A stretch of DNA of 64,000 nucleotides from Xanthobacteraceae bacterium (GTDB lineage: Bacteria; Pseudomonadota; Alphaproteobacteria; Rhizobiales; Xanthobacteraceae). Below are positions 35,253 through 55,625 of the stretch, one piece after another. The notes beneath the pieces are model-generated. The model was not told the origin of the DNA, did no database searches, and saw only the letters and a list, made by a program, of their open reading frames with translations. How positions within the stretch are numbered: position 1 is the first letter of the stretch; each line of letters starts with the position of its first letter. The stretch is taken from assembly GCA_051985675.1 (NCBI GenBank), contig JBPYFJ010000027.1, positions 613 through 64,612 on the forward strand, read 5' to 3'. Position numbers and translations under genes: made by a program.

Positions 35253-35353
35253 ACGGACATAATATACTCGCGACTTGACGTGTCGCGATGGATGTCCTTA
35301 GCTAGCGCCACAACATCAATGTCCATCTGATGGACATTACCGGAGGGCGCGCC

Positions 35354-36337
35354 ATGGTCAAGACCCGACGGGCATTCTTGTCATCAGGCCTGCTCGGTGC
35401 GGCCGCGCTGGCCGCGCTGGCCGCGCCATTCGCAGGACATGCGGGAGCGTGGCCGCAGCGGCCGGTGAAATTCATCGTGCCGTTCGGACCGGGCGCCGGG
35501 GCGGACATCGGGGCGCGGGTCTTTGCCGAGCGCTTGCAGGCCCTGTGGGGGCAGCCGGTCGTCGTCGAGAACCGGCCCGGCGGCGACAGCATCGTTGCGA
35601 TTACGGCCTTTCTGACCGCGAACGACGACCATACGTTCTTGTTTGCACCGGCGGGCAATTTCACGGTGCATCCGTTCATGTACAGCAGGCTCGCCTACGA
35701 GCCAAACGACATCGTTCCGGTCGCGCGCGTGTCCAACACCATCCTCGCGGTTGGCGTGAAGGCGGACGCTCCGTTTGCGACGATCAAGGACTTCACCGCA
35801 GCGGCCAGGCAGGCCCCGGGCAAATACAACTGCGCCATGGTGCAGGGCATCACCGAATTCACGTTCTGGGGCTATGAGGCGGCCGAAGGCTTAAAGATCA
35901 CCCAGGTTCCCTATCGTGACATCAACACGTCGGCGGTCGATCTCGGCGAAGGCCGGATCCAGATTGCGATGTTGTCCTATGCGATGTTGCGCTCGCATGT
36001 CGAAGCCGGTCGGGTTCGATTGATCGTGGTGAACAACGCGACGCGAGCGCCGTTTGCGCCGGACGTGCCGACCGCGCGCGAAGCCGGCTATCCGTCGCTC
36101 GAGGTCGAAGGTCTCATCGGCCTTTTCGCGGTCACGGCGCTGGCGAACGAGCTCAAGGACAAAATCGCGGCGGACATCAAGAGCGTATCCGTGGCTCCCG
36201 TTATCGCCGAACGGCTGACGGCCACCGGCCAGGTCGTGAATTATGGCGGCCCGCAAGAGTTCGCCGATGCGATCACGGCGCAACGCGCCAAAATCGCCGC
36301 CACCGCCAAGGCCATCGATTTCAAGCCGAAACAATGA
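35354..36337 (+). CDS. Bug-family tripartite tricarboxylate transporter substrate-binding protein (TctC-like)
   Basis: Tat-like TRRAFLSSG signal. WPQRPVKFIVPFGPGAGADIGARV is the Bug signature. Confidence 0.85.
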   Translation: MVKTRRAFLSSGLLGAAALAALAAPFAGHAGAWPQRPVKFIVPFGPGAGADIGARVFAERLQALWGQPVVVENRPGGDSIVAITAFLTANDDHTFLFAPAGNFTVHPFMYSRLAYEPNDIVPVARVSNTILAVGVKADAPFATIKDFTAAARQAPGKYNCAMVQGITEFTFWGYEAAEGLKITQVPYRDINTSAVDLGEGRIQIAMLSYAMLRSHVEAGRVRLIVVNNATRAPFAPDVPTAREAGYPSLEVEGLIGLFAVTALANELKDKIAADIKSVSVAPVIAERLTATGQVVNYGGPQEFADAITAQRAKIAATAKAIDFKPKQ

Positions 36338-36367
36338 GGGACGGCCAGACAAGAAGGATCGCAAACG

Positions 36368-37639: not shown

Positions 37640-37696
37640 GCCGCGGGCACCTGCGTTCGCGCATTCGATCCACACCGAGCATAAAGTCTGCCGTAG

Positions 37697-38470
37697 ATGA
37701 ACAGGGTTGCCGGCAAGGTCGCGTTGATCACGGGTGGCGGCTCGGGAATTGGCGCGGCCGCCGCCCGGATCATCTGTGCCGAGGGCGGCGAGGTGATGCT
37801 CGTTGACGCCAACGAGGAGGGACTGGCCGCTACGCAACAAGACATTCTCGATCGGGTACCGGACGCGCCCGTTGCGACGTTTCTCGCCGACGTCAAGGAC
37901 GCCGATAAGGCCGCGCGCGCGGTCGAGGAAACCCTTCAGAAATTTTCTCGCCTCGATGTTTTGGTGAACAACGCCTCCATGCGCAATTACTCCGCGGTTG
38001 CGGACGCGACGCCCGCCGAATGGCAGGCGACGGTTGACGTCAATCTGATCGGGGCCGCGAACTACTGCCGAGCCGCATTGCCAACGCTGCGCAAAGCCGG
38101 TCGCTCAAGCATCGTCAATGTGTCGTCGGCTTACGCGGTCGCCGGGCGCAAAGGCATGGGCCTATATGATGCGACGAAGGCCGGCATGCTTGCCATGACC
38201 CGAACGCTGGCCTGCGAGGAAGCGGCCCATGGCGTGCGCGTCAACGCAGTCTGTCCGGGGTCTACGCTGACCGGTTTCCATATGGCGCGGGCGCGCGCCG
38301 CCGGGAAAAGCATCGAGCAATTGCAGACGGAACGGCAGACGACGTCCCTGCTCGGGCGGTGGGCGACGCCGGAGGAAATCGCATGGCCGATCCTTTGGCT
38401 TGCCAGCGACGAAGCCTCGTTCATCACCGGGGCCACATTGATGGTCGACGGCGGCCTTTCGATTATTTAG
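37697..38470 (+). CDS. SDR family oxidoreductase
   Basis: TGGGSGIG cofactor motif, NNAS, YDATKAG catalytic YxxxK. Confidence 0.85.
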   Translation: MNRVAGKVALITGGGSGIGAAAARIICAEGGEVMLVDANEEGLAATQQDILDRVPDAPVATFLADVKDADKAARAVEETLQKFSRLDVLVNNASMRNYSAVADATPAEWQATVDVNLIGAANYCRAALPTLRKAGRSSIVNVSSAYAVAGRKGMGLYDATKAGMLAMTRTLACEEAAHGVRVNAVCPGSTLTGFHMARARAAGKSIEQLQTERQTTSLLGRWATPEEIAWPILWLASDEASFITGATLMVDGGLSII

Positions 38471-38524: not shown

Positions 38525-39502
38525 CTAATCCAACCTGAGGCCGGCGAATCTAACGACCTTAGCCCACTTGTCAGTTTCTTCCGCGACGAGACTGCCGAAG
38601 TCCGCGGGAGACCCCGTGAATATATCGCTGCCGAGCTCGCTCATGCGCGCCTTTACGGCGGGATCGGCGAGCGCCGCATTAATCTCCCGATTGAGACGCT
38701 CGATGATCGCCGGCGGCGTGCCCTTGGGCGCCCCGAAGCCCAGGAATCCCTTCACCGCGTAGCCCGGGACAACATCGGCGATCGGAGCAACGTCCGGCAC
38801 CACCCGCACGCGCTCAGTGGCGGTCACCCCAAGTGCGCGCACCGTGCCGGCCTGGATGAGCGTCACCGACGAGCCGATCGCGTCGAACATCGCATGGACA
38901 TCGCCGGCCATCACCGCCGACTGCGCCGCCGGCGTGCCCCGATATGGGACATGCACGATGTTGGTGTCGGTCATCATCTTGAACAGTTCGCCGCACAGAT
39001 GGGTCAAGTTGCCGGTCCCCGTCGAGGCCAGGTTGATCTTGCCGGGGTTGGCCTTGGCAAAGGCGATGAATTCCGCAACCGATTTGACTGGAAAAGACCG
39101 GTTCGCCGTCAGGACGAAGGAATCGTTATTGGTACTCGCGATCGGGTCGATGTCGCGTGTGACCGTGATCGCGCTTTTCTCATAAAGCGTCACGTTGACG
39201 GCGTGCGGGCTGGCAACCTGCAGGAGTGTGTAGCCATCGGCGGGGGCGCGCGCGACCGCCTGCAGCGCCAAGTTGCCGCCGGCACCCGGACGGTTGTCGA
39301 TGATCACCGACTGGCCGAGCTGTTGCGAAAGCGCTTGACCGACGAGCCGCGCAATAATGTCCGGCGTGCCTCCTGCCGGAACAAAAACAACCAGCGTCAC
39401 CGGCCGGGTTGGAAAGGTCTGGGCTTGCAGTGATCGGGGGACGGCAACAAGCGCGGCAGCGCCACCAACCAGATGCAGAGCCTTGCGGCGCGCAATTTTC
39501 AT
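38525..39502 (-). CDS. Bug-family tripartite tricarboxylate transporter substrate-binding protein
   Basis: FPTRPVTLVVFVPAGGTPDIIARL Bug signature with a signal peptide. Confidence 0.85.
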   Translation of the reverse strand: MKIARRKALHLVGGAAALVAVPRSLQAQTFPTRPVTLVVFVPAGGTPDIIARLVGQALSQQLGQSVIIDNRPGAGGNLALQAVARAPADGYTLLQVASPHAVNVTLYEKSAITVTRDIDPIASTNNDSFVLTANRSFPVKSVAEFIAFAKANPGKINLASTGTGNLTHLCGELFKMMTDTNIVHVPYRGTPAAQSAVMAGDVHAMFDAIGSSVTLIQAGTVRALGVTATERVRVVPDVAPIADVVPGYAVKGFLGFGAPKGTPPAIIERLNREINAALADPAVKARMSELGSDIFTGSPADFGSLVAEETDKWAKVVRFAGLRLD

Positions 39503-39566
39503 GGAGTCCTCCCCTGCCCTTCGCGATGGCGATTTCGTCGATTTTATAGGAAGCCCCCATCATCTT

Positions 39567-39860
39567 TTAAACAAAGATGCGGTCGCCCTGCATATCAATG
39601 ATCTGTTTGGCCTTCGAGATCGTGAAGTTGATCGCGTCGTCCCTGTTTTGGTGCGTATCGGCCCGGACGAAACGATGCTCTTTTAGACCGTCCGGGTGGT
39701 CTTTCTCGATAATCCCAGCGGTCTGATACTGACCGTTGACCAGGTACGGTGTCGGCTTGATGCGATAGCCTTTGTACTCGATGAACGCGGTGGCCGCCTC
39801 GTCAAGCTTGCCGGCTCCTTTCGACAGACGGATCCAAGCCGTTTTTAATTTCGCGAACAT
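39567..39860 (-). CDS. HlyU-family small protein as annotated in Rhizobiales
   Basis: MFAKLKTAW...IEYKGYRIKPTPYLVNGQYQTAGIIEKD...KEHRFVRAD...AKQIIDMQGDRIF resembles the alphaproteobacterial HlyU family, recalled from memory. Confidence 0.55.
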   Translation of the reverse strand: MFAKLKTAWIRLSKGAGKLDEAATAFIEYKGYRIKPTPYLVNGQYQTAGIIEKDHPDGLKEHRFVRADTHQNRDDAINFTISKAKQIIDMQGDRIFV

Positions 39861-40110
39861 GCTACTCGCCTCGCCCGCGCGCCGTTCATTCGATGACCTC
39901 GCCGGCGGCGGCCAGTTCGGGGCAAACATCCATTCGGGTCGTCCCCTTTGTGCCAACAGCGGACTCGCGGTCCCCGACGCTCAGAACTTGTAGCTGCCGG
40001 CGATCCTAACGGATGTGCTCTGCGGAAGCCACTGGGGCCCCCCGTGAGCGACCGGACAGCGTACGTTCAAGAACCGAAGCTAAGTGCCGAAACCGGACAT
40101 CGCCGCATGC

Positions 40111-40539
40111 TTAGCTTTGACGGTCGGCGAGTGCCACGTGCACCACAAGCTGACCCTCAGGAGGATGACGGGAAATGTGCCCCTTACCGGTCGTATCTTC
40201 AGCCAGCACAACGCTTCCCGCCGGAAGTCGGCGAATGTCGCCATCGCTTGTCTCGAATTCAACCTGACCGGTTAACCAGAGGACAAGCAAGCGCTGCGGC
40301 GGATTGTGCCAATCCACCTCATGCATGCCGGATGGCACGTAGCAGATGTTGTACCAAGAGGCTGCAAAGTTGTCGGTGAGGCGCAGAGGTGGATTATCTT
40401 TGAAGATTTGTTTTGGCTGTAGAATGATATCGACGTCTTCCATATGAGTTTCGCCGTTAGCATCCGCGAAAATTCGGAGGCATATCACGCGTTCATCCGT
40501 AGCCCGCTTGCCCGAGATCGCTGCCATATCCGGCTCCAT
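40111..40539 (-). CDS. Cupin domain-containing protein
   Basis: 142 aa with a beta-rich cupin-like core (HNPPQRLLVLWLTGQVEFETSDGDIRRLPAGSVVLAED). Confidence 0.6.
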   Translation of the reverse strand: MEPDMAAISGKRATDERVICLRIFADANGETHMEDVDIILQPKQIFKDNPPLRLTDNFAASWYNICYVPSGMHEVDWHNPPQRLLVLWLTGQVEFETSDGDIRRLPAGSVVLAEDTTGKGHISRHPPEGQLVVHVALADRQS

Positions 40540-40592
40540 CTAATCCGCCACGTCGCGGGGCTTTTCTTTAGCGCCAACGCAGCCAGCGCCCT

Positions 40593-42299
40593 TCATTTTT
40601 CGGAAAGATGCCAAATCCCGTTCCAGTCGGCCGGGGGTGGAGTACCCCGCAGTAGTGCAACGCGCTCGAGAAAGAGATGCGTTGGGCCATCATCCACGAT
40701 GGTGCTGAGGCAGCCTTCGAAGTGGGTCTGCGCCGCGTCCCAATCCTGTTGGCGATAAGCAGCCAAGCCGCAGGCAAACTGATCGCGCAGCTTGCTCTGC
40801 TCAGGCTTGAGCTCGCCAGTGCGTCCCATCGCCTCGTAGATGCGGACCGGTTCGGTCTTGCCGGCGACGGTGATTACATCAAGCTCGCGGGCCTCAATGG
40901 CCTGTTGCGCCAGCCGATACGTCTCCTCGCTGAGGATAATCGAGGTGCCGTAGAGCTTGTTGATGCTCTCGAGACGTGAGGCGAGGTTTACGGTGTCGCC
41001 GATCACCGTATAGGAGCGCGCCGATTCGGAGCCGATGGTCCCGACAACACCCTCGCCGGTGGCGATGCCCATGCGGATTGTAAGTTTTGGTGGGTTACGT
41101 CGCATCCCGGTGATCTCAGGCAACCGGGCACGCAGCGCGATGATCGCTTCCTGCTGTGCCAGCGCCGCCAGACAGGCGTCGCTGGCATGGTCGTCGCCGG
41201 CCGAGAACGGTGGGGTCCAGAATGCCATCACGGCATCGCCGATATATTTGTCGATCACACCACGATGCTCGTGGATCACGGCGGCGACCACGGCGAAATA
41301 GCTGTTCAATAGGTTGACGACCGCGCTCGCGGTGAGTTGCTCGCTGATGCCGGTGAAACCCTTGATGTCGGAAAAGAACACGGTGAGATTGCGGCGCTCA
41401 GCCTGATCGGCGCTGTTGCCGATCAGCTGGGTGACGATCCGCGGGTCGACGAACTTGCCAAACGTTTCCTTGATGCGTTCGCGCGTGCGCAATTCCTCGA
41501 CCATGCGATTGAACGAAAGAGCAAGCTCGCCGACTTCATCGCGTGAGTGAATCACCACCGGTACCGAATCCGCGCCGGACTCGATCGCCCGGGTGCTGGC
41601 AACGAGCTGGCGCAACCCACCGATCACGCGGGTCGCACCCACGGCGCTGATTCCAAGTCCGATGCCGCAGGCTACAACAAACAAGGCAAAACTTAGATAA
41701 GTATCGAGCCGTTGTCGAGCGAGGACTTCCCGGGTCGACCGCTCCGTAAGATCGGCGACGGCGCGGCGAATTTCGGATAGATCGGGACCGAACGCCTGAG
41801 CGAATTTCGCGAAGTTCAGAGATTCCGTCCGCGCGTCCTCTCGTCGGCCGTCGGCGAGTGCCGCCATTGTGCGGTCGCCAACGGACAGAAATTCCTCGAG
41901 GCTACGGTTCAGGTACTTGAATGAGCCTTCGATCCGCGCCAAGTCGACGCGGTCAGCGGGGTCATAGCGCCGGTCTTGGATCGCTCGCTCAAGCAATTCG
42001 CCGGCCGTCGCAACGTCCGAACGCATCTCATCGGTCAGTGCCTGTTTGGCGGTGGTGGCCGCATTGAGCTGTTCCGCGCTGGCAGGATTGAGTCGAAGCG
42101 CGCGCAGGATGTTGAGCTCGTACCGGTCGGTGTCGACGTCGAACTGAGCAACTATCCGCGACAGTGGGAGCTCATAACCGACTATGTTGCCGATCTGGTC
42201 GCTGTCCAGCTTCTGAACGACGGCGAGCACACCGACCACAACGCCGAACAGTGCCAGAAGAATGCCGGCGAGGAGAAAAATCTTTTTGCGGATCGTCAT
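40593..42299 (-). CDS. Membrane-bound HAMP-domain class III adenylate/guanylate cyclase
   Basis: TM, about 170-aa periplasmic helical region, TM, HAMP, then the cyclase domain (LTVFFSDIKGFT, GDAVMAFW, GIATGEGVVGTIG, YTVIGDTVNLASRLE). Confidence 0.85.
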   Translation of the reverse strand: MTIRKKIFLLAGILLALFGVVVGVLAVVQKLDSDQIGNIVGYELPLSRIVAQFDVDTDRYELNILRALRLNPASAEQLNAATTAKQALTDEMRSDVATAGELLERAIQDRRYDPADRVDLARIEGSFKYLNRSLEEFLSVGDRTMAALADGRREDARTESLNFAKFAQAFGPDLSEIRRAVADLTERSTREVLARQRLDTYLSFALFVVACGIGLGISAVGATRVIGGLRQLVASTRAIESGADSVPVVIHSRDEVGELALSFNRMVEELRTRERIKETFGKFVDPRIVTQLIGNSADQAERRNLTVFFSDIKGFTGISEQLTASAVVNLLNSYFAVVAAVIHEHRGVIDKYIGDAVMAFWTPPFSAGDDHASDACLAALAQQEAIIALRARLPEITGMRRNPPKLTIRMGIATGEGVVGTIGSESARSYTVIGDTVNLASRLESINKLYGTSIILSEETYRLAQQAIEARELDVITVAGKTEPVRIYEAMGRTGELKPEQSKLRDQFACGLAAYRQQDWDAAQTHFEGCLSTIVDDGPTHLFLERVALLRGTPPPADWNGIWHLSEK

Positions 42300-42490
42300 C
42301 CCAATCTCTGAAAGGCTTGTGCATCCTTCCGCGGTGCTTCCTTATCATAGTAATCGCCTGGTCAGCCACACGCGATACCTCCGGCCAAGCATCGGGACAC
42401 TGGAGGGCACGGCCCGGCATTCAGAGCGCTGGCCTGGAACCATTGGCCGGAAGCCGCGGTTAGTGCTGCATCAAGCACAAGAGCCCTGCC

Positions 42491-42919
42491 ATGCCCAAGC
42501 GGCGCAACATCGCGCGAGCCGTCGAGCGCCGCATCATCGGCGAGTTGCTGATCGGCGCGATGGTCAACATGCGCCGCGCGTACTTCCCGACGTTGCCGCC
42601 GCAGAATGTGCCGGACCTCGGGCTGGTGATGGCCTACGTGATGCTCGCGCACATCGCCGGCCATACAACCACCGCGCACAAGATCGCCGAGGAGACCGCC
42701 ATCCCGCGAGCGACGATCACGCGCCGGTTGGCGTTGCTTGAGCGATTGGGCCACCTCGAGCGCCGGGGCTCGCGCTACCTGATGAGCGCCCGCGCGGCCG
42801 CGGAGCCGCCCTCGGAATCCGCACTCGACGCGCTCGTGCAGCTCATCATCAAGGCCGGCCGCGACCTGGAGCGCGCCAAACTGTCCAAAATGAGCAGTAA
42901 GACCGTTGACGCGGCATAG
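42491..42919 (+). CDS. Winged-helix (MarR-like) transcriptional regulator
   Basis: AHKIAEETAIPRATITRRLALLERLGHLERRGSRY is wHTH-like. Divergent from the cyclase gene. Confidence 0.5.
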   Translation: MPKRRNIARAVERRIIGELLIGAMVNMRRAYFPTLPPQNVPDLGLVMAYVMLAHIAGHTTTAHKIAEETAIPRATITRRLALLERLGHLERRGSRYLMSARAAAEPPSESALDALVQLIIKAGRDLERAKLSKMSSKTVDAA

Positions 42920-43363
42920 CGCATTACCCCTAAGCTGAGCCCGATGGGGATATGCGAAAAAGGACGGGAAGGGCATCAATGACGCAAGTACGTACCGCAC
43001 TCCATCTGTGTACTGACGAGCATCTCAAGCGCGAGCTCCTTGGCACGGCGATCACCGGCAACCGCGGTCGCTCGAACCTGATCGGGCCGATCCTGCGAGT
43101 ACCTGCGAGCGCGAAAGCGTAACGCGGTCCAGCGGCCAGCAGCGCGTCGCGTCGCCGAGTGTAGGTGCTCGGAGTTTCTTCCACCCTGATCGCTCCTTGC
43201 CTCGGCGCCGCCGAAGGCTGAGCGAAATCCATGTCGCGGCGCTGCTCACGCCGCTGACCGCACGCAATCGAACGAACACCGGCCGGTTCCGCAGGGCAAT
43301 CTTGTGGGCTCCTGCCGGTCGGTTCGATCGCTGCGCCGTCTGTGACGGGGAAGGAAGACATCA

Positions 43364-46363
43364 GTGAGCGGATCGACCAGCCTGACCAGGGTCGGCAACA
43401 CATTCTACCTTTATGACAGCACCTGGACCGGCCCCACGCTCAAATATGCCGGTGTAGATTTCGTCGCGGGACAGTTCGGCGGCTGGACGCCGATCGGCGC
43501 AGTGCAGACCGCGAACGGATATGACGTTGCCTGGAAGGTCACCGGCGCCGATGAGTATACCGCCTGGAGCACGGACAGCAACGGCAACTACATCGCGAGC
43601 ATCATCGGGTACGCGGTTCCGGGAACCGATCCTTCGCTGCAGGCGCTTGAGGCCACGTTCCACCAAGACCTCAACGGCGACGGAAAGATCCTGATCCAAG
43701 TGGACGGAGCAACCAGCCTGACCGAGGTCGCGAACAAATTCTATCTCTATGACGGCAGCGGGACCGGCCCCACGCTCAAATATGCCGGCCAGGATTTTGT
43801 CGCGGGGCAGTTCGGCGGCTGGACGCCGATCGGTGCTGTGCAGACTGCGAACGGATACGATGTTGCCTGGAAGGTCGCGGGCACCGATCAGTATGTGGTC
43901 TGGAGCACGGACAGCAACGGCAACTACACCGCGAGCATCACCGGGTACGCCGTTTCGGGGACCGATCATTCTCTTAAAGCACTTGAAACGACGTTTCACC
44001 AGGACCTGAATGGCGACGGCGTGGTCGGTGTTTACACGCCCGGCACGTTTTCATTGCAGTACAAGGGCTTTGCCTACGTCTCCTCCTACAACGGCGCCTA
44101 CGAGAATTCGGATTCGCTGCCAAGCCTCGTGCGGACCGGCGCCAATTCGATCGAGGCGACGATCGGCTACGGTATTGATGTCGCAACATCACAGGTCGTA
44201 GTGGATCACAACTACACCGACAGCCTGAACGCGCTGGGTAAGACGATCGCCGAGGCGGAGAGTTTTGGTCTTTCGGTCATGGTCAGGCCGCTGATCGGCT
44301 TCCTCGACCCGGCCGTGGTCGCACCATACAGCGTCGGCGACTGGCGCCAGAGCTATCAACCAACCGACGTCGCGACGTTCTTTGCCAGCTACAAACAAAT
44401 GCTGATTGCGGAGGCGGAAGTCGCCCAGCAGAACGGCGCGCAGATGCTTTCCGTCGGCGCCGAGCTCGATCAGCTCGCGGGTCCGCAATATCTGTCCTAT
44501 TGGACCGACATTATCAGTTCGGTGCGCACGGTCTTCGATGGCGCCCTGACCTATTCGGCGAACTGGGGCACGGCGACTGAAGTCAGCTTCTGGAGCAAGC
44601 TCGATTACGAGGGCATCGACTGCTACGTTCCGCTGTCGAATGCGCAGAACCCGACCCTCCAGGATCTGATCGACGGCTGGCTCAAGCCCGCGAGCGCGTC
44701 CGCGAATCCCGTCGCTTACAACGCGATGGGCAACCTGTCGCCGATCCACTATTTCGAGAGCCTCGCGGCACAGTCGGGAAAACCGCTATTGTTCACCGAG
44801 CTCGGCTACGCGAACGACAGCGCAGCCGCCGCGGAACCGTGGATATCGGGCAACCACCCTGCCCCGGGGCTGCAAGCCGAGCTCTATCAGGCCTTCTTCC
44901 AGGCCTGGGCTCAGTCCGGCAGCTCCGCTCTGAAAGGCACCTATTTCTGGGACTGGGACCCCAATGGCAGCAGCTCCAACGTGGGCCCGGGAATCGATAG
45001 CTTCAGTCCGCAGAACAGCCCCGCACAGGATCAAGCGATGGCGGGTTTCGCAACGCTGATAAAGGGCGATGCGGGCAACAACATCCTTACGGCGGGATGG
45101 GGGATCGACACGTTCACCGGAGGCGGTGGAGCCGACACGTTTGTGTTCCCGCACACCTACAGCAACGCCGTTGCGGGTCAACGCGACACCATTACCGACT
45201 TCACGCCCGGGACCGACAAGATCGACCTGAGCGGAATCGATTCGCACTTTGGCTCGGGCGACCACGCGTTCGAGTTCATCGGGAACGCGGCGTTCGACGG
45301 GCATGCGGGCGAGCTGCACTATTCCTATGACGCAGCCCACAATGTCACGATTGTGGAAGGCGACACCACGGGCGGCAAGACCGCAAGCTTTGGGATCGAG
45401 CTGACCGGCAACCTGGCCCTGACGACGGCCGACTTCACGGCGGCGAGCCTGTTGCACCCGGTCAACCTCACCGCCACGGCGAACAACGTGACGCTGACCG
45501 GCGGACCGCTCGACGACACCCTCAACGATGGGGGTTTTGCGGTCACAATGGTTGGAGGACTGGGCAACGACACCTATGTGGTGAGCAATCCCGGAGACGT
45601 CTTGGTGGAGACTGCCGGGAGCGCCTACGCGCCGCCGGCCGGGTGGAGCGTGATGGGGACGGCGGACTTCAACAAGGACGGCACGCTCGATGTGGTGCTC
45701 AGCAACGGCACGGCGGACGAGTTTCAACTGCTGACGAGCAGCGGGGCAGTCGTGTCGACGGTCCCAGCGTTATCCTGGGACGGGTGGCAGCTGCAGGGCA
45801 CGATCGATTTTGACTACGACGGCAATCCCGACCTTTTGTTTCAGCGGATCGGCTCATCGCAACAAGAGGTGGACTACCTCAACGGAACGAGTTGGACCGG
45901 ACGTTACTCAGGCGTCAGCGGCGTCACGCCTGACGCCCTGCACCCGCTGCCGGGGGGCGACCAGGACACCGACACAGTCCTCTCCTCGGTGAGCTACGCA
46001 TTGCCGAGCGGGGTTGAGAACCTGACCCTGATCGGAACCGGCAATATCAACGGCACCGGCAACGGCCTCGACAACATCATCACCGCCAACTCGGGCAACA
46101 ACGTCCTCACCGGCGGCGGGGGCAACGATACTTTCGTCTTTGGCGCCAACTTCGGAAAGGATTCCATTACCGATTTCCACCTCGGCGACACGATCCAGTT
46201 CGATCACACCGTGTTTGCGACCGTGTCTGCCGTCCTGGCGGCCCTGGGCACCGACGTCCACGGCAACGCCACCATCACCGCCAATGCCAATGAGACCGTT
46301 ACGGTGGATCACGTCTCGGCAACGCTCCTTCAGCAACACTCCGACGCATTTCATCTGAAGTAG
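43364..46363 (+). CDS. Large secreted mosaic protein: 2 x 112-aa N-terminal repeats, clan GH-A-like TIM-barrel domain, RTX beta-roll, FG-GAP/VCBS-like repeats, C-terminal RTX repeats
   Basis: GTG start after GGGAAGGAAG. The central region has GAELDQL and FTELGY. Ca-binding nonapeptides GGGGADTFVF and GGGGNDTFVF. FNKDGTLDVV and DYDGNPDLLF repeats. No N-terminal signal peptide, consistent with a T1SS substrate. Confidence 0.8.
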   Translation: MSGSTSLTRVGNTFYLYDSTWTGPTLKYAGVDFVAGQFGGWTPIGAVQTANGYDVAWKVTGADEYTAWSTDSNGNYIASIIGYAVPGTDPSLQALEATFHQDLNGDGKILIQVDGATSLTEVANKFYLYDGSGTGPTLKYAGQDFVAGQFGGWTPIGAVQTANGYDVAWKVAGTDQYVVWSTDSNGNYTASITGYAVSGTDHSLKALETTFHQDLNGDGVVGVYTPGTFSLQYKGFAYVSSYNGAYENSDSLPSLVRTGANSIEATIGYGIDVATSQVVVDHNYTDSLNALGKTIAEAESFGLSVMVRPLIGFLDPAVVAPYSVGDWRQSYQPTDVATFFASYKQMLIAEAEVAQQNGAQMLSVGAELDQLAGPQYLSYWTDIISSVRTVFDGALTYSANWGTATEVSFWSKLDYEGIDCYVPLSNAQNPTLQDLIDGWLKPASASANPVAYNAMGNLSPIHYFESLAAQSGKPLLFTELGYANDSAAAAEPWISGNHPAPGLQAELYQAFFQAWAQSGSSALKGTYFWDWDPNGSSSNVGPGIDSFSPQNSPAQDQAMAGFATLIKGDAGNNILTAGWGIDTFTGGGGADTFVFPHTYSNAVAGQRDTITDFTPGTDKIDLSGIDSHFGSGDHAFEFIGNAAFDGHAGELHYSYDAAHNVTIVEGDTTGGKTASFGIELTGNLALTTADFTAASLLHPVNLTATANNVTLTGGPLDDTLNDGGFAVTMVGGLGNDTYVVSNPGDVLVETAGSAYAPPAGWSVMGTADFNKDGTLDVVLSNGTADEFQLLTSSGAVVSTVPALSWDGWQLQGTIDFDYDGNPDLLFQRIGSSQQEVDYLNGTSWTGRYSGVSGVTPDALHPLPGGDQDTDTVLSSVSYALPSGVENLTLIGTGNINGTGNGLDNIITANSGNNVLTGGGGNDTFVFGANFGKDSITDFHLGDTIQFDHTVFATVSAVLAALGTDVHGNATITANANETVTVDHVSATLLQQHSDAFHLK
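43376..44020 (+). repeat. Tandem 336-nt (112-aa) coding repeat, two copies
   Basis: ACCAGCCTGACC... begins at 43376 and again at 43712. The copies are about 85% identical by eye (FYLYD..GPTLKYAG.DFVAGQFGGWTPIGAVQTANGYDVAWKV...WSTDSNGNY...FHQDLNGDG). Confidence 0.8.
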
Positions 46364-46406: not shown

Positions 46407-46625
46407 TTAGCTGAGACAGCCAGCGAGCTCCTCGTTGGATGGGAAGCGACCGGTCGCCTTCTTTGAGAACGCGAGCCGGCCGTCAACGCGAATTTCGAAG
46501 ACGCCGCCGCTCGACCGGCGAAGGTTTACTTGTGCCGAGGGTCGCAGCTTGAGGATCTGGTCTCGCGCCTCACGGGCGCGCGGTTCATAGCCTCACTGAC
46601 CGCAGTATTCGATCTCGATTTTCAT
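46407..46625 (-). CDS. SelW/Rdx-family small redox protein with in-frame TGA at the CxxU motif (candidate selenoprotein)
   Basis: Hand translation gives MKIEIEYCGQ-TGA-GYEPRAREARDQILKLRPSAQVNLRRSSGGVFEIRVDGRLAFSKKATGRFPSNEELAGCLS-TAA. TGA lies at 46595-46593. AGGA Shine-Dalgarno sits 7 nt before the ATG. The pattern parallels mammalian SelW (VVYCGAUGY...GFFEV.V.G.L.HSKK). Confidence 0.65.
46564..46580 (-). promoter_or_regulatory. SECIS-like hairpin downstream of the in-frame UGA
   Basis: The RNA reads UGA-N12-CGCGCC-CGUGA-GGCGCG: six G:C pairs and a 5-nt loop containing GU. The loop starts 19 nt after the UGA. Confidence 0.4.
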
Positions 46626-46733
46626 GAACCCGTCCTCGCGCGTTGGCGACCTGCGGGAGGCAGACATCGCCGTTCATCAAAGGCTCGACCGCCGCGGCAT
46701 GACGTGCCGCAGCGGCAAACCAAGAACCGACGC

Positions 46734-48152
<1,419 letters not shown>

Positions 48153-48423
48153 TCACTCCCTCTCATCAACTGAATACGCGCTTTCCCACGCCGTGGCCGG
48201 CATCGTTGGACGGCGTCGTTTGGCGCGCACCCCAACCTAGCATGCCAAATCGACCCGGGGTATGATTTTGGCGGCCCGTCCTTCGACCGATCTTCCGGCT
48301 TGCGTGCCGACCCGCGACCAGTGAAAAATACCGCATCCTGAACGGCTTCGTACACAACCATCGCAAACGCGGTTGCGCGCGGTCCGTCCCAGCCTCGATC
48401 CCTTCTGCCCCAAGGAGAACGGC

Positions 48424-48825
48424 GTGGCTAACGATGAGTTCAGCGTCAGGAGCGTAGTTTCGTCCGCCATCAGCGCTGACTTGTGCGAAATTGACATCGT
48501 CTTGGAAACCGAGGACGGGCTCCGCCGCGTGTGCAAGATCAACCCAGACGTTCTGGCGGAACTGCTGATCAATCTGTCCGATCTGGCCCAGCACGTGAGG
48601 AACGAGATCGTGGCCCGATTTGGCGAGCTCGCGATCGCCGCGCTCGGGGTCGATGGGGTCGCGGCAACCTCGCCGTCGGGCAGCGGCAAGGTCATTCTGA
48701 GCATCCAATCGAGGACCGGAACCGTGCATCATTTTTCCTTCAATCCGGAATTGTCGGCGATTCTTCGATCGCAAATGCGAAGCGCGGAAAAATCCGCGGG
48801 TCAAATTCGGAAAGGATCGTCTTGA
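48424..48825 (+). CDS. Hypothetical protein
   Basis: GTG start 6 nt after AAGGAG. Plausible composition. Preferred over the antisense 243-aa ORF. Confidence 0.45.
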   Translation: MANDEFSVRSVVSSAISADLCEIDIVLETEDGLRRVCKINPDVLAELLINLSDLAQHVRNEIVARFGELAIAALGVDGVAATSPSGSGKVILSIQSRTGTVHHFSFNPELSAILRSQMRSAEKSAGQIRKGSS

Positions 48826-48856
48826 GTAGTTCATAGCAACCATCAGGGAGGACGAT

Positions 48857-50185
48857 TTGACCAGGAACGGAACAATCGCCGTCGCTCTCGGCTTCATCTT
48901 GCAGGCCGCAAGTCCTTCTGCATGGTCTCAGGAGGGCCGACAATATCTGGCGCCGCAAGATCAATCCGTCGCAATTCGCGCGGCGCATTTGTTCGACGCG
49001 CGCACCGGCAACCTGCTGGACAACCAGGTGGTGCTGATCAAAGGCGACCGCGTCGCCGACGTTGGCGCAAACTTGCAGCTCCCGCCCGGCACGCGCGTAC
49101 TCGACCTCGGCGCGATGACGGTTCTCCCCGGCATGATCGATGCGCACGTCCACGTGAACACCGGCGGCACTACGCCGGCGCAGCGCGCCCTAATCGCGCT
49201 CGCCAACGCGCAGGCCGATCTCGAAGCGGGCTTCACAACCGTTCTCGACATGGATTCGCGCGGCGGATTCAACACGGTCGATCTGCGCGACGCGATCAAC
49301 TCCGGCCTGGTGCAGGGGCCGCGGATGCAGGTCGTCGGCCAGTCGATCAATCAGCGCGCCACCAACTATTACCCCGACTCGCATCCCGACGCGCAGTTTG
49401 GGCGCTACTATGATGGCTTCACCGAGACCAAGAACGTCAACTCTCCCTGGCTCGCGCGCGCAGCGGTGCGCGAGAACAAGCTGCACGGCGTCGACTACAT
49501 CAAGATCTATACAACGCAGGATTTCGTCGGGCCGGTTCACATGTGGAAGCGCGACGGCACGCTGGTCAACAGCCCGTCTCTGACCCTGGACGAGGTTATG
49601 GCGATCGTCGACGAGGCGCACCGGCTTGGCTTGAAGGTCGCTTGCCACACCTATGGGGGCGAAGGAATGGCGAGCTGCCTGACCGCCGGGGTCGATGCCC
49701 CCAACCACCTGCTCGAGCTCGACGATGCCGGGGTGAAGATCCTGCTCCAGAAGAAACTTCCATTCGTTCCGACCGTCGACGATCTGGTCGCGCTCGAGAA
49801 AGCCGACCTGCGCGATACCGGCGGCCGGAACTCGCGCCTGAAACTGCTCGAGCACGCCGTGCGGATCGCGGTTGCCGCCGGGGTTCCGATCGTGTTCGGC
49901 AGCGGCGCGACCTCGCGCGAGATACCGCACGGCAAGCAGGCCAACCAATTCAGCTACTATGCGCAATGGGGCATGGGACCGGTGCGGGCGTTGCAAACCG
50001 CCTATCTTCCGGCCGCGCAGATGCTCAACTACGGTTGGGAGAGCGACATCGGAACGATCGAAAAGGGCAAGTTCGCGGATATCATCGCGGTCAGCGGAAA
50101 TCCGACGGCCGACGTCACCGAGATGGAACGCGTGAAGTTCGTGATGAAAGGCGGCACCGTGGTGCGCAATGACACGGTCAAGTAG
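48857..50185 (+). CDS. Exported amidohydrolase-family metal-dependent hydrolase
   Basis: TTG start after GGGAGGA. Signal peptide. PGMIDAHVHV metal motif and C-terminal GKFADIIAV...V.FVMKGG. Confidence 0.8.
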   Translation: MTRNGTIAVALGFILQAASPSAWSQEGRQYLAPQDQSVAIRAAHLFDARTGNLLDNQVVLIKGDRVADVGANLQLPPGTRVLDLGAMTVLPGMIDAHVHVNTGGTTPAQRALIALANAQADLEAGFTTVLDMDSRGGFNTVDLRDAINSGLVQGPRMQVVGQSINQRATNYYPDSHPDAQFGRYYDGFTETKNVNSPWLARAAVRENKLHGVDYIKIYTTQDFVGPVHMWKRDGTLVNSPSLTLDEVMAIVDEAHRLGLKVACHTYGGEGMASCLTAGVDAPNHLLELDDAGVKILLQKKLPFVPTVDDLVALEKADLRDTGGRNSRLKLLEHAVRIAVAAGVPIVFGSGATSREIPHGKQANQFSYYAQWGMGPVRALQTAYLPAAQMLNYGWESDIGTIEKGKFADIIAVSGNPTADVTEMERVKFVMKGGTVVRNDTVK

Positions 50186-50189
50186 CTTC

Positions 50190-51656
50190 ATGTCGCCAGC
50201 GCGTGCAACCAATCGCCGTGCCGTTCTCGGCATGACGGCGGTGACGGCCGCGGGTCTCGCCTTGCCGTCGACGCGCGTCTTTGGCGAGGCGTCCGGTACC
50301 GGGAACGTCATCAACACGCTGGGCGACTACATGGGCGCCGCCGGCGCGCGTGCGCTTCCCCCCGACGTTGCGGAGGCGGCCAAGCATCACCTGCTCGATA
50401 CCTTGGCGTCGATGGTGTCGGGTTCGGAGCTGCTGCCGGGCCAGTCGGCGCAGCGCTACGTCCGCGCTTACGGCGGACAGGGCGGAGCGACGATCGCCGG
50501 CACGTCGCTCAGGGCGGCGCCCGCCGACGCCGCGCTCGCGAACGGGGTCATGGCGCACGCCGACGAGACCGACGACTCGCACAACGCCTCGCGTTCGCAC
50601 CCCGGCTGTGCGGTCGTGCCCGCGGCGCTGGCGGTCGGCGAACAACGCGGCGTCGACGGCGCGCGCTTCCTGCGCGCCGTGACGCTCGGCTACGACGTCG
50701 GTCCGCGGGTGGTGATGGCCATGGGCGGCGCCGATTGGAGCTACGAGACGAGCCTTGCGACCCATAGCATCGCGGGGACATTCGGGGCCGCGGCCGCGGC
50801 GGCATGCGCCGCCGGGCTCGACGCACGCCAGATGCACTGGGCCTTGGATTATGCCGCGCAACAGTCGTCCGGCATCGTCGCCTGGCGACGCGACACCGAC
50901 CATATCGAAAAGGCGTTCGTGTTCGCCGGAATGACGGCGCGCAACGGCGTGACCGCGGCGCTCGTGGTGCAGACGGGGTGGAACGGCGTCGATGACATCT
51001 TCTCCGGTGCGGACAACTTTTTCCGCGCCTATGCTCCCAATGCGCATCCCGAGCGGCTGATCGAGAAGCTTGGCGAGCGCTACGAGATCGCTGTCACCGA
51101 CATCAAAAAATGGACCGTCGGCTCCCCGATCCAAGGGCCGCTGGACGCGCTCGACGCCATCCGCCGCAAACAGCCGTTCGAGGCCGATGCCGTCAAGCGC
51201 GTCAGCGTACGTCTCGCGCCCTCGGTCGCCGAGGTGGTGGACAACCGCGACATTCCCGACATCTGCCTCCAGCACATGCTCGCCGTGATGCTGATCGACA
51301 AGACCGCGTCGTTTCACGCGGCGCACGACAAGGCGCGCATGCAGGATCCGACGGTCCTGCGCCAACGCGCAAAAGTGAATCTTGTTCGCGATGAAGAGCT
51401 CGCCAAGTTGCTGCCGGTGCGCGTCGCGGTCGTCGACGTTGAACTCGCGGACGGAACTCTTCTGTCGGAGCGCGTCTCGGCGGTGCGCGGCACGCCGCGC
51501 AACCCGATGACGCGCGGCGAAGTTGCCGACAAAGCCGTCGACCTCACCGCGCCGGTCCTCGGACGCGAAAGGGCCGCGCAGCTTGTTGAGACCGTTTTCG
51601 CGATTGAAACGCTTCCGGACGTCCGCCGATTGGGATCGCTGCTGCGGCGCGATTAG
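50190..51656 (+). CDS. MmgE/PrpD family protein with Tat-like N-terminal signal
   Basis: MSPARATNRRAVLGMTAVTAAGLALPS, then PrpD-family motifs (HLLDTLASM, GVMAHADETDDSH, KKWTVGSPIQGPLDA). Confidence 0.85.
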   Translation: MSPARATNRRAVLGMTAVTAAGLALPSTRVFGEASGTGNVINTLGDYMGAAGARALPPDVAEAAKHHLLDTLASMVSGSELLPGQSAQRYVRAYGGQGGATIAGTSLRAAPADAALANGVMAHADETDDSHNASRSHPGCAVVPAALAVGEQRGVDGARFLRAVTLGYDVGPRVVMAMGGADWSYETSLATHSIAGTFGAAAAAACAAGLDARQMHWALDYAAQQSSGIVAWRRDTDHIEKAFVFAGMTARNGVTAALVVQTGWNGVDDIFSGADNFFRAYAPNAHPERLIEKLGERYEIAVTDIKKWTVGSPIQGPLDALDAIRRKQPFEADAVKRVSVRLAPSVAEVVDNRDIPDICLQHMLAVMLIDKTASFHAAHDKARMQDPTVLRQRAKVNLVRDEELAKLLPVRVAVVDVELADGTLLSERVSAVRGTPRNPMTRGEVADKAVDLTAPVLGRERAAQLVETVFAIETLPDVRRLGSLLRRD

Positions 51657-51840
51657 GGCGCGATGGCTTTTCTTCGAATCGTCATCCCGCTCTAGCTCCT
51701 TGCTAAAGCGCGCGGCGGTCCGAACGGCGGCAGGTCGTTGCGGCACGCGCCAACCCGAGCCTCGCAAACTGACATACATTTTGTTTATTTCCGCGCAAGC
51801 GCGTGTATCTGCGGTCACCGCGATGCCTCCCTCGCGGAAG

Positions 51841-51941
51841 TGGGCATGCATGGTGGACGCACGGAAAAAAGGAAGCTTCGTCAGTATGTTGTCATGGGTG
51901 CCCAGAATCGCCGAACATGGGCATCCATGAGGGCATCCATG
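51841..51941. repeat. Second locus of the GGGCATCCATG palindromic repeat family
   Basis: CATGGGTGCCCAGAATCGCCGAACATGGGCATCCATG-A-GGGCATCCATG (51893-51941), plus the degenerate GGGCATGCATGG at 51842. This is the reverse orientation of the element at 18817-18855. Confidence 0.45.
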
Positions 51942-51991
51942 TGCACGCGGCGCTGCCAACGAGGGCCCGGCGAAACCCATCAGTTGGCGGG

Positions 51992-52032
51992 CCCAAAAAA
52001 CCAAAGCCCGCATGGTTTGCGCCATACGGGCT
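51992..52032 (-). terminator. Orphan rho-independent terminator on the minus strand
   Basis: The minus strand reads AGCCCGTATGG-CGCAAA-CCATGCGGGCT followed by TTGGTTTTTTGGG. There is no credible CDS upstream of it. Confidence 0.5.
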
Positions 52033-52338
52033 CCGGCGGTGCCGGCACATTCGCGAGCGCTGGCCGAAGGCACAGGCCGCGCAACGTTTGCTGGCACCGA
52101 GCGCAATCATCGTCCGACCAATCGAAACGGTCAAACCGTGGTCGGATCTTATTCCCGTTATCCACACCTGGGATCGGTCAGAACGCGACGATGAGAAAAC
52201 GGCGAGGCTGCATTAACGGGCACGGCGCGGACGCTGCCGGCGGTTCCATCCGGTCACAAAAATATGCACGCCTTACGGCGGCCGAACCGGGGTCAGCCGG
52301 CGTGCGTTCCTCATTAGTAAAGCAGGAAAGGCAACATC

Positions 52339-52497
52339 ATGAAGCTCGGTAAAGTGGCAGCAACTGTGCTTGTTCTCGCAATAACGCTCGCGACAACCGC
52401 GAACGCGGCCCCGCGCTACCGCCACTACGGCTACTACGGCGGAGGAAATACCGCCGCAGCCGCACACTTCCAGGACCAGTTCAGGAATACGTACTGA
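52339..52497 (+). CDS. Small secreted Tyr/Gly-rich peptide (52 aa)
   Basis: AGGAAAGG Shine-Dalgarno 7 nt before the ATG. MKLGKVAATVLVLAITLATTANA signal, then APRYRHYGYYGGGNTAAAAHFQDQFRNTY. Followed by a terminator. Too short for the ORF track. Confidence 0.5.
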   Translation: MKLGKVAATVLVLAITLATTANAAPRYRHYGYYGGGNTAAAAHFQDQFRNTY

Positions 52498-52518
52498 GCG
52501 AGCAGCGTCCACTGATCC

Positions 52519-52558
52519 AGCCCCGCCAGCTGAAAGGTTAGGCGGGGCTTTCTTTTGG
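52519..52558 (+). terminator. Rho-independent terminator of the small peptide gene
   Basis: AGCCCCGCC (52519-52527), a 13-nt loop, GGCGGGGCT (52541-52549), then TTCTTTTGG. Confidence 0.65.
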
Positions 52559-52669
52559 TGCGGTGCGCTTGGTGTCTGGCTGAGCGCCCGCCGTCGCGAC
52601 CTCGACACTTGGCCGCGCTCTCATTCTCGTGGCCTTATAGGTCCACGGCAGTTAGGCACGGCCCCCGGT

Positions 52670-55366
52670 ATGTCGACCTATCGACTTGATCGCCTGTTCG
52701 CACCGCGCTCGGTCGCCCTCATCGGCGCGAGCCCGCGCGAGAAATCCGTCGGGCGCGCCATTCTGCAAAACCTGCACACCGGCGGCTGGTCGGGGGACCT
52801 TCATCTCGTCAACCCCAAGCACCGCGAGATCGACGGCGTTGAAGCCATCAAGGATTTATCGGAGCTGCCCGCGGCCCCGGATCTCGTCGTCATCACGACT
52901 CCCCCCGAAGCGGTGCCCGGCGTGGTGGCGCAAGCGGCCGAGATGGGAGCAGCCGCGGCTATCATCATCACGGCCGGCCTCGGGCATGGCCCGGGCTCGC
53001 TGGCGCAGGCGTGCGAGCAGTCGGCACGTGCCAAGGGATTGCGGCTGATCGGTCCGAATTGTCTGGGGCTGCTCGTGCCGGGACGGAAACTCAACGCGAG
53101 CTTCGCGGCGCGCATGCCGGTTGAGGGCGAACTGGCGCTGGTGTCTCAGTCCGGCGCGATCGTCGCCGGAATGGTCGATTGGGCAGCCAACCGTGGCGTC
53201 GGCTTTTCCGCGATCGCTTCGATCGGCGACCAACTCGACGTCGATTTCGGCGATCTGCTTGACTATTTCGCGCTCGATCGCGGCACGCGCGCAATCCTGC
53301 TCTATGTCGAAGCAATCAAAAACGCGCGCAAGTTCATGTCGGCCGCGCGCGCCGCGGCGCGCGTCAAACCGGTCATCGTGGTGAAAGCCGGACAACAGGC
53401 CGCGGGCGCCAAGGCCGCCGCGACGCACACCGGAGCGTTGGCTGGCGCGGATGCGGTCTACGGGGCCGCCTTTCGCCGCGCCGGCGTGCTGCGCGTGCTC
53501 GATCTCGGTGAATTGTTCGATGCCGCCGAAACGCTGGGGCGCGTGCGTCATCTTGGCGGCAACCGGCTCGCGATCCTGACCAACGGCGGGGGCATCGGCG
53601 TGCTGGCCGCCGACCGTCTTGCCGATTTCAACGGAATAGCCGCCGAACTCACGGAGGCGACGCGCGACACGCTCGACCGGATGCTGCCGCCGACCTGGTC
53701 GAAAGCAAACCCCGTCGACATCATCGGCGACGCAGACGCCGCCCGCTACGAGGCGGCGCTCGAGGTGCTGTTGGCGGCGCCCGAGGTCGACGCGGTCCTC
53801 GTGATCAATGTCCAGACTGCGATCGCACCGGCAGCCGCAATCGCGGCGCGGGTCGCCGATGTCGCAAGCAAGCTGCGCGCGCGCAAGCCGCAGCCCAAGC
53901 CGGTATTCGCCCTGTGGATCGGGGCCGATCCGAAGATTTCCGCGATCTTCAGCGAAGCCAGCATTCCGCATTACGAGACCGAGACCGACGCCGTGCGCGG
54001 ATTCATGCAGATCGTGTGGCACCGCGAGGCAATTGACGCATTAATGCAGACACCCCCGAGTTTGCCCGTAGGGTTCGAACCGAACGCGGCGGCGGCGCGC
54101 ACAATCGTTGCAAAGGCGCTTGCCGACGGGCGTCGTTGGCTTGATCCGCTCGAGGCGGGCGAACTGTTGCGCGCTTACGGAATAACGACGGTTGAGACGA
54201 TCCTCGCACGGACGGTCGACGAAGCCGAAACCGTCGCCGCGCAGTTTCTGGATGCAGGTCAATCCGTCGTCGCCAAGATCTTGTCGCACGACATCGTGCA
54301 CAAGTCGGATGTCGGCGGTGTCCGGCTCAATCTCACAACGACGGCGGCGGTGCGCGCGGCCGTCGCCGATATCCTCGCCAATGCCAAGCGCGCGCGGCCG
54401 GGTGCGCACATCATCGGGGTGACGCTGCAGCCGATGATCGTGCGGCCGAAGGCGCGCGAGCTGATTGTCGGCATTGCGGATGACGCCACCTTCGGCCCGG
54501 TCATCGTGTTCGGCCGGGGCGGAACCGGTGTCGAAGTCATCAACGACAAGGCGCTCGCGCTGCCGCCGCTCGATCTCAGACTGGCCCGCGACCTCATCGC
54601 GCAGACCCGCGTGGCGCGCCTGCTGGGCGCCTATCGCGACGTGCCGGCGGTGGACCAGGACGATCTCGCGCTCACCCTGGTCAAGGTTGCACAGCTCGCG
54701 GCCGACCTGCCGGACGTTCGCGAGCTCGACATCAACCCGTTGCTGGTCGATGAACACGGAATGATTGCGCTTGATGCGCGGGTGGCGGTGGCCGCCGTCG
54801 AGCCGACGTTCAAGGGATCAGGTCACCCGCGCTTTGCGGTGCGGCCCTACCCGAGCGAATGGGAACGCCATCTCACCATCGCCGACGGACGGCGCGTCTT
54901 CGTGCGGCCAATCCGACCGGAGGATGAGCGGTTTTATGCCGGGTTCTTGGCGCGCGTGTCTGCTGAGGATTTGCGGTTGCGGTTCTTCGCGCCGTTGCGC
55001 ACGCTCAGCCATAGCTTCATCGCGCGCTTGACGCAGATCGACTACGCGCGGGCGATGGCGTTTGTGGCGATCGACGAGCAGCAGGACGAGCTGCTCGGGG
55101 TCGTACGCCTGCATTCGGACGCCAACTATCAATCGGGCGAATACGCGATCCTGTTGCGTTCCGATCTGAAGGGCCAGGGGCTGGGCTGGAAGCTGATGGA
55201 GTTGATGATCGACTACGCCAGGCGTGAGGGCCTCGCGCGCATCGAGGGACAGGTTTTGAGCGAGAACACCACCATGCTGCGGATGTGCGGCGAGCTCGGG
55301 TTTCATCTCGCGCATGACCGCGACGATCCATCCGTCATGGTCGCAACGTTGTCGCTCGGGGCATAG
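52670..55366 (+). CDS. Bifunctional ADP-forming acyl-CoA synthetase-like / GNAT N-acetyltransferase (Pat/PatZ-type protein acetyltransferase)
   Basis: 898 aa. CoA-binding N-terminus (FAPRSVALIGAS), ligase-CoA and ATP-grasp regions, and a C-terminal GNAT motif (LLRSDLKGQGLGWKLMELMIDYARREG). Confidence 0.85.
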   Translation: MSTYRLDRLFAPRSVALIGASPREKSVGRAILQNLHTGGWSGDLHLVNPKHREIDGVEAIKDLSELPAAPDLVVITTPPEAVPGVVAQAAEMGAAAAIIITAGLGHGPGSLAQACEQSARAKGLRLIGPNCLGLLVPGRKLNASFAARMPVEGELALVSQSGAIVAGMVDWAANRGVGFSAIASIGDQLDVDFGDLLDYFALDRGTRAILLYVEAIKNARKFMSAARAAARVKPVIVVKAGQQAAGAKAAATHTGALAGADAVYGAAFRRAGVLRVLDLGELFDAAETLGRVRHLGGNRLAILTNGGGIGVLAADRLADFNGIAAELTEATRDTLDRMLPPTWSKANPVDIIGDADAARYEAALEVLLAAPEVDAVLVINVQTAIAPAAAIAARVADVASKLRARKPQPKPVFALWIGADPKISAIFSEASIPHYETETDAVRGFMQIVWHREAIDALMQTPPSLPVGFEPNAAAARTIVAKALADGRRWLDPLEAGELLRAYGITTVETILARTVDEAETVAAQFLDAGQSVVAKILSHDIVHKSDVGGVRLNLTTTAAVRAAVADILANAKRARPGAHIIGVTLQPMIVRPKARELIVGIADDATFGPVIVFGRGGTGVEVINDKALALPPLDLRLARDLIAQTRVARLLGAYRDVPAVDQDDLALTLVKVAQLAADLPDVRELDINPLLVDEHGMIALDARVAVAAVEPTFKGSGHPRFAVRPYPSEWERHLTIADGRRVFVRPIRPEDERFYAGFLARVSAEDLRLRFFAPLRTLSHSFIARLTQIDYARAMAFVAIDEQQDELLGVVRLHSDANYQSGEYAILLRSDLKGQGLGWKLMELMIDYARREGLARIEGQVLSENTTMLRMCGELGFHLAHDRDDPSVMVATLSLGA

Positions 55367-55625
55367 CCGCCAAAAATCTCCGTTCGGGAGCGGCGTGCGA
55401 CCCTGCCGGGTTCCCGCACAGATGGCCGATATGACAAGTTCGCCGTGGAATGGAACGTTCCTGCCGGTAAGCCGTTGTTGGTGTCGGGTGAAGCGAAAGA
55501 CCAAGTCCTTCCGATTGCACAGGTAACCGCCGTGCCCAGCGTGGCGGACGTCAGGACGCGTACAAAGTCGGCTCCAACAGGGGCCGGAGCGGTCGGGTTT
55601 TTGCCGAACACTGAGGCGCACACAG

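Follow-up and report, generated by a model that had tools for sequence, protein, structure and literature searches.

A very probable SelW-like selenoprotein gene with a putative SECIS hairpin inside its coding sequence in a soil alphaproteobacterium

Bacterial SelW-like proteins and the gene of the window

SelW-like selenoproteins of bacteria were already catalogued in the selenoproteome surveys of 2005-2006 (PMC1088965, PMC1794560). In the Sargasso Sea data they formed the most abundant selenoprotein family, with 48 genes that combined a CXXU motif and a bacterial SECIS element, a structure located directly downstream of the UGA codon and carrying a small apical loop that contains a G (PMC1088965), and they count among the families where the forms containing selenocysteine (Sec) predominate (PMC1794560). 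The gene considered here was found in a stretch of 64,000 nucleotides, analysed as a whole and hereafter named the window (64 kb). It is a member of this well-known family, described since about 2004-2005, and its close orthologs are already labelled so in databases; because such surveys, curated HMMs and labelled close orthologs exist, we are dealing with an already known kind of gene. It has in common with the bacterial family the HMM family itself, an N-terminal CxxU motif, a size in the range of ~70-100 residues, a UGA codon followed by a small GC hairpin with a G in its loop, and the excess of Sec over Cys forms. With its 72 residues the protein is among the shorter members, which makes no essential difference. 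While the survey examples came from marine organisms or anaerobes, the copy of the window comes from a clade of soil alphaproteobacteria (Xanthobacteraceae, Pseudolabrys, Acetobacteraceae and Rhodopila MAGs).

Outside bacteria, mammalian SelW and MIEN1 have the CxxU or CxxC motif at the same position as the protein of the window, with an identity of only about 32-35%. Mammalian SelW binds glutathione or 14-3-3; no comparable partner of the bacterial proteins is known. The way in which the Sec codon is recognized also differs: eukaryotic SelW depends on a SECIS element in the 3'-UTR, together with SBP2 and eEFSec, whereas the corresponding element of the window gene would lie inside the coding sequence. 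A closer likeness in this respect is offered by the SECIS of the E. coli fdhF type, where the hairpin is likewise part of the coding sequence: it starts at the UGA or immediately behind it, its apical stem-loop follows after some 11-12 nt, and the loop contains G/U. The minimal SECIS of E. coli is the 17-nt upper stem-loop placed 11 nt past the UGA. The sequences differ, however: the loop found here reads CGUG(A/C), no bulged U was identified, and the SelB-binding element is a putative one.

The coding sequence extends over 46407..46625 on the minus strand, where an ATG (46625-46623) begins 72 codons followed by a TAA stop (46409-46407). It opens with ATG AAA ATC GAG ATC GAA TAC TGC GGT CAG TGA GGC TAT GAA, and the translation of 46625..46407 gives MKIEIEYCGQ, the in-frame TGA, GYEPRAREARDQILKLRPSAQVNLRRSSGGVFEIRVDGRLAFSKKATGRFPSNEELAGCLS and then the terminal stop, reproducing exactly the hand translation of the original prediction, with the TGA at 46595-46593. 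This triplet (46593..46595, minus strand), codon 11, is the predicted Sec codon; three codons before it, the TGC codon of Cys8 (46602..46604, minus strand), a cysteine in 81/81 aligned sequences, would provide the resolving Cys of a Cys-x-x-Sec motif. A Shine-Dalgarno sequence, GAGGA (46633..46637, minus strand), stands 7 nt before the ATG and includes the AGGA at 46636-46633 that had been noticed at the outset; GAGGA or AGGA is found at equal distance from the start in most close orthologs. As the codon for the active-site Sec reads as a TGA "stop", the gene is missed by ORF finders, and the mechanical ORF list of the window has no entry for this frame, in agreement with what had been said of the ORF track. 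A scan of the window for split ORFs around TGA, meant to reveal further selenoprotein genes, did not produce any convincing candidate.

For the HMM and tblastn queries, U was replaced by C in the 72-residue product. The Rdx/SelW family relationship that had been proposed from the letters alone is borne out by two models, both well over their cutoffs: Pfam Rdx PF10262 (E = 5.9e-20, 71.7 bits vs a gathering score of 22.6), which covers residues 2-67 of 72, and NCBIfam TIGR02174 'CXXU_selWTH' (63.4 bits vs a cutoff of 34.2). A narrower equivalog of the Campylobacter type, NF041051, scored 81.3, just under its cutoff of 88, which leaves the gene outside that subgroup. A sequence search of the PDB found MIEN1 (2ljk), Atu0228 (2fa8), SAV_2001 (3dex), mouse SelW (2npb) and three more bacterial proteins described as 'SelW-related'. 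In the solved Rdx proteins (MIEN1, Atu0228), Cys8 aligns with the first Cys of the CxxC motif and Sec11 with the second, precisely where the original prediction had placed the TGA.

The fold was modelled with AF2 on a natural Cys-form ortholog, P0007, 76% identical to the protein of the window. The model (pLDDT 86.5) displays the order beta-alpha-beta-beta-beta-alpha, with its CxxC motif between strand E4-10 and helix H16-29, that is, at the beta1/alpha1 junction. Foldseek ranked first the bacterial structures 2fa8, 2ojl, 3dex and 2obk (TM 0.88-0.90, rmsd 1.1-1.4 A); next came mouse SelW (2npb) and MIEN1 (2ljk), of the same Rdx fold (probability 1.00, TM 0.73-0.74), followed by thioredoxins. 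The whole set of Cys Rdx structures (2fa8, 3dex, 2obk, 2oka, 2ojl, 2p0g) provides the best structural matches, with TM 0.86-0.90, rmsd 1.1-1.5 A and the same order of strands and helices; these proteins differ from that of the window in having CxxC instead of CxxU, about 25-35 more residues, and 26-33% identity. A thioredoxin-like Rdx fold is thus what the model of this Cys-form ortholog, at 76% identity, predicts for the window protein.

The hairpin downstream of the UGA codon

The core of the putative SECIS element is a hairpin of 17 nt (46564..46580, minus strand), in which the stem strand CGCGCC (46580-46575) pairs with GGCGCG (46569-46564) around the loop CGUGA (46574-46570). It consists of a 6-bp stem and a 5-nt loop behind a 12-nt spacer, exactly as first described from the letters, with a folding energy of -10.2 kcal/mol. 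The full SECIS-like element (46551..46595, minus strand; MFE -16.2 kcal/mol) extends this core by a lower helix formed between GAGG (46594-46591), which overlaps the UGA, and CCUC (46554-46551). Taken alone, the hairpin is weak evidence, because some 4% of all positions of this 63% GC window (and 4% of its TGA triplets) are followed at a similar distance by a perfect stem of 6 bp or more, and because the fold of the 66-nt region, compared with shuffled sequence, gives a z of only -0.34, which is not significant.

Comparison with relatives is more telling. We aligned the window with 80 orthologs (the best 80 of 536) over 66 columns. Of the cells of the core stem, 94.4% are paired (77 distinct orthologs), with double changes from CG to UA in two sequences (L074, L078) and changes from GC to GU in 11. 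Next to the stem, columns 21/39 mostly face each other as a G-G mismatch; in five sequences, each of which lacks an inner pair, A-U or G-C stands there instead. For the lower helix the share of paired cells is 76%, and one ortholog, L072, shows a double compensatory change, GG being replaced by AA and CC by UU. Covariation statistics remain modest, since most stem pairs never vary.

Codon usage at the same place is stronger evidence for a SECIS element than covariation. At codons 15-21 (P R A R A/E A R) the synonymous entropy is 0.0-0.84 bits, vs 1.4-2.1 bits at the four- or six-fold degenerate codons elsewhere in the gene. Arg18 is encoded by CGT in 75/77 sequences, a codon that is rare at the other Arg sites of the gene and that supplies the G and the U of the apical loop. 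It follows from this suppression of synonymous variation that the hairpin has been selected as RNA, at exactly the predicted place; conservation, restrained synonymous change and a few compensatory changes all side with the SECIS reading initially put forward.

Other ways to look at the region contributed less. An alternative register, pairing columns 19-26 with 31-39 around a bulged G, has slightly more paired cells (86%), yet no covariation accompanies it and the sequence of the window does not fit it; it was rejected in favour of the register first proposed. RNAalifold, run on the 66-column alignment, returned a fragmentary consensus only (-2.1 kcal/mol), and no Rfam family matches the hairpin region, the sole match (E=9) being spurious. 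As a separate observation, codons 5-6, ATC GAA (46608-46613, minus strand), are invariant at the nucleotide level in 81/81 sequences, while the other Glu codons are about half GAA and half GAG; a search by eye for a pairing partner of this segment found none. It could correspond to an additional cis constraint upstream of the UGA that helps recoding, or to a need for low structure near the start codon.

Orthologs, selenocysteine machinery and neighbouring genes

The orthologs were collected by scanning GTDB, with one genome per species, which gave 536 relatives, of which the best 80 were kept. These 80 come from distinct alphaproteobacterial species, all soil or peat MAGs (Xanthobacteraceae, Pseudolabrys, Hyphomicrobiales, Acetobacteraceae, Rhodopila), and their products are 65-87% identical in amino acids to the protein of the window; they share its start, and their frame is open to a stop near codon 72-75. 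The original prediction had left it to relatives to tell, by TGC/TGT or by TGA at codon 11, which form prevails. The answer is TGA in 80/80 of these best of 536, despite a tblastn query that carried Cys at this codon, a choice by which the ranking would favour Cys forms. Past the UGA the residues are well conserved among orthologs, and dN/dS, computed for the window against its 14 closest orthologs, is 0.15-0.30 after the TGA; the downstream part is therefore under purifying selection as a protein. Together, the match to the protein family and the conservation over the best 80 of 536 orthologs put the feature far beyond chance.

We therefore hold it as very probable, with only a small margin of doubt, that the locus is a genuine bacterial SelW-like selenoprotein gene with a bacterial SECIS in its coding sequence, the remaining doubt being almost entirely about whether the source organism still has Sec machinery. 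That none is visible in the window had been pointed out from the start, and the observation stands: there is no tRNA of any kind in these 64 kb, nor any homolog of selA, selB or selD when SelA, SelB and SelD of E. coli MG1655 are used as queries. Relatives are more generous. At L029:10389-15172 and L031:10465-15137 the SelW-like gene is followed by a divergent selD and then by selA, selB and tRNA-SeC (UCA); at L026:5-3529, selA, selB and tRNA-SeC (UCA) lie 3 kb upstream of it; at L028 and L034, selD adjoins it, at about 10386-11425. The loci with sel genes beside the ortholog (L026/L028/L029/L031/L034) belong to Pseudolabrys-type MAGs, and their presence there implies that the clade is Sec-competent. 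The selD match of L028 is broken into three, perhaps by a frameshift or by a Sec or stop codon in frame.

Because the gene sits directly beside selD, selA, selB and tRNA-Sec in several Pseudolabrys-type genomes, one may imagine that the alphaproteobacterial SelW-like protein is a selenium handler, carrying selenide or selenopersulfide to feed SelD, or that it travels with selD-selAB-selC as a module associating a client with its machinery; we consider this an unlikely proposition. Less likely still is that the gene, once that of a true selenoprotein, now resides in a genome that recently lost Sec decoding, so that only a 10-residue peptide is made. Bacteria have often lost the Sec trait in the course of evolution (PMC1794560), and the lack of Sec machinery in the 64-kb window would fit with it. 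The gene, however, shows no decay: there is neither frameshift nor extra stop, the Shine-Dalgarno sequence and the hairpin are intact, the dN/dS with respect to the 14 close orthologs is that of a constrained protein, and related Xanthobacteraceae and Pseudolabrys genomes have selD, selA, selB and selC. All this makes a recent loss very improbable.

The immediate neighbour invites another reading. Upstream on the same strand lies a ligM gene (46734..48152, minus strand), for a tetrahydrofolate-dependent vanillate/3-O-methylgallate O-demethylase with a GCV_T domain; its product matches the Sphingobium LigM structures 5x1i/5tl4 over its full length, with E = 1e-202, and is a true LigM ortholog, as the original prediction had recognized in calling it a LigM-type gene. 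The prediction had further hinted that this pairing could be meaningful, and one might suppose that the selenoprotein is the dedicated redox partner of LigM, co-transcribed with it, in the catabolism of lignin-derived aromatic compounds. The two genes share a strand, with 108 nt between them, and aromatic-catabolism genes are found nearby, in the form of a LigXa-like Rieske gene in the window and of a BphC-type dioxygenase gene beside some orthologs. The hint did not survive comparison: in none of 80 ortholog loci (the best 80 of 536) does a LigM homolog lie closer than about 10 kb to the SelW-like gene, and the pairing for that reason looks incidental. Methyl transfer to tetrahydrofolate by LigM is not known to require a thiol redox partner. 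Furthermore, the spacer, taken with the region of the ligM stop (46626..46750, minus strand), folds at -65.8 kcal/mol (z = -2.75) into a row of three stable hairpins, of which the first, a terminator-like one (46748-46726), covers the ligM stop codon and another has 17 bp; these structures make independent transcription of the SelW-like gene more likely than an operon with ligM. Nor is there a constant partner elsewhere. The neighbours of the orthologs vary from clade to clade (ManC, M20 peptidase, BphC-type dioxygenase, arginase, GFA, nitroreductase, sel genes), and clustering of the flanking ORFs of the window locus and of the 80 loci (best of 536) revealed no conserved neighbour, as no family occurs in more than 23 loci, the clustered genes being unrelated housekeeping or catabolic ones. 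A dedicated partnership with LigM is thus a most improbable explanation.

The surroundings deserve a brief description in their own right. Around the locus, at 35330-38470 and 46734-56825, the window carries genes for the catabolism of aromatic compounds and organic acids; they encode a LigXa-like Rieske oxygenase, an SDR, LigM, an amidohydrolase, an MmgE/PrpD protein, an acyl-CoA synthetase-GNAT fusion and a PAS histidine kinase. In the closest relative (L001:10236-13146), SDR and LigXa-like Rieske genes are found directly downstream of the SelW-like gene, and they are 84-91% identical to the homologs at 35330-38470 of the window. Here some 8 kb (38525-46363) separate these genes from the SelW-like gene, with TctC, an uncharacterised 568-residue ORF, MarR and a GH113/RTX protein; this different material, when compared with L001, suggests an insertion or a rearrangement. 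The last of these genes (43364-46363, plus strand) is convergent with the SelW-like gene across a gap of 43 nt, and encodes a 999-residue protein with two W_rich_C domains, GH113, a serralysin-type C-terminal domain and RTX repeats.

The family has also left a confused trace in public gene calls. A protein database search returned many entries of ~50 residues (about 100) that start after the TGA, a large number of them labelled 'selT/selW/selH-like putative selenoprotein', and a few full-length forms, which carry W, R or C at position 11. The W forms (L083, L084) have TGA in their DNA and were translated under genetic code 4; some calls made with this code run through the real TGA stop and so end in an additional W. 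The R form has AGA, on a single 1-kb contig (L085:127-348), and the C forms have TGT in L086:721-942 (1.7x coverage) and TGC in L087:1067-1291; these three variants (L085-L087) still keep an almost intact SECIS hairpin. In the protein search, the Cys-form homologs included P0007, P0009 and P0057, and the miscalled entries were P0001-P0005, P0008, P0011-P0019 and the truncated set of about 100. Since W stands for TGA read under code 4 and all full-length forms retain the hairpin sequence, Sec would be the standard state of the clade, with the Cys and Arg forms as rare, recent variants or sequencing errors.

This bears on the view that the locus is a pseudogene, a Cys-form Rdx gene killed in this lineage by a nonsense mutation from TGC or TGT to TGA. 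It could invoke the existence of Cys-form relatives (TGT in L086, TGC in L087) and the lack of visible Sec machinery in the window. The latter two relatives are, however, rare metagenomic variants known from single contigs, and they keep the hairpin, from which it follows that Cys is a derived state there, or a sequencing error. The frame past the TGA is intact and selected, and a dead gene would not keep up the conservation of the hairpin at the RNA level; above all, a TGA found in 80/80 distinct species (best 80 of 536) effectively refutes the idea, and leaves it an extremely small probability. Finally, that the UGA is decoded otherwise than as Sec, as Trp or by near-cognate read-through, has a negligible likelihood, for the W of several public gene calls arises from gene callers using genetic code 4, TGA is the commonest ordinary stop of the long ORFs of the window (19/39), so that the code has not been reassigned, position 11 corresponds in alignments to the family's catalytic Cys, and tRNA-Sec and selB adjoin orthologs.

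Decoding, product and meaning

With a genuine SelW-like selenoprotein gene as the preferred reading, its expression may be pictured as follows. Ribosomes would start at the ATG at 46625, behind the GAGGA Shine-Dalgarno sequence, and soon meet the UGA of codon 11. There the SECIS within the coding sequence, a 17-nt GC hairpin with G/U in its apical loop, resting on a short lower helix of which the UGA itself is part, would recruit SelB with GTP and Sec-tRNA(Sec); by analogy with what is understood of bacterial Sec decoding, SelB would bind the apical hairpin as the ribosome arrives at the UGA, and Sec would presumably be inserted in the organism of the window in place of termination. The product would expose Cys8-x-x-Sec11 at the beta1/alpha1 junction and, to judge from the Rdx/SelW family, would most likely act as a small thiol- or glutathione-dependent oxidoreductase, cycling between a selenolate/thiol and a selenenylsulfide state, its reducing power probably coming from glutathione or thioredoxin.

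The finding leaves unchanged what is known of selenoproteins and of the catabolism of lignin-derived aromatic compounds. Its value is chiefly one of annotation: a real gene is lost to standard ORF finding in the genome of the window, and the public calls for its relatives are systematically wrong, being either truncated to ~50 residues or endowed with a spurious Trp under code 4. The 81-sequence alignment offers a clean, clade-specific case of a coding-region SECIS in which constraint is visible in codon usage. As for the organism itself, a soil alphaproteobacterium of the Xanthobacteraceae type, the SelW-like gene suggests that it uses selenocysteine.
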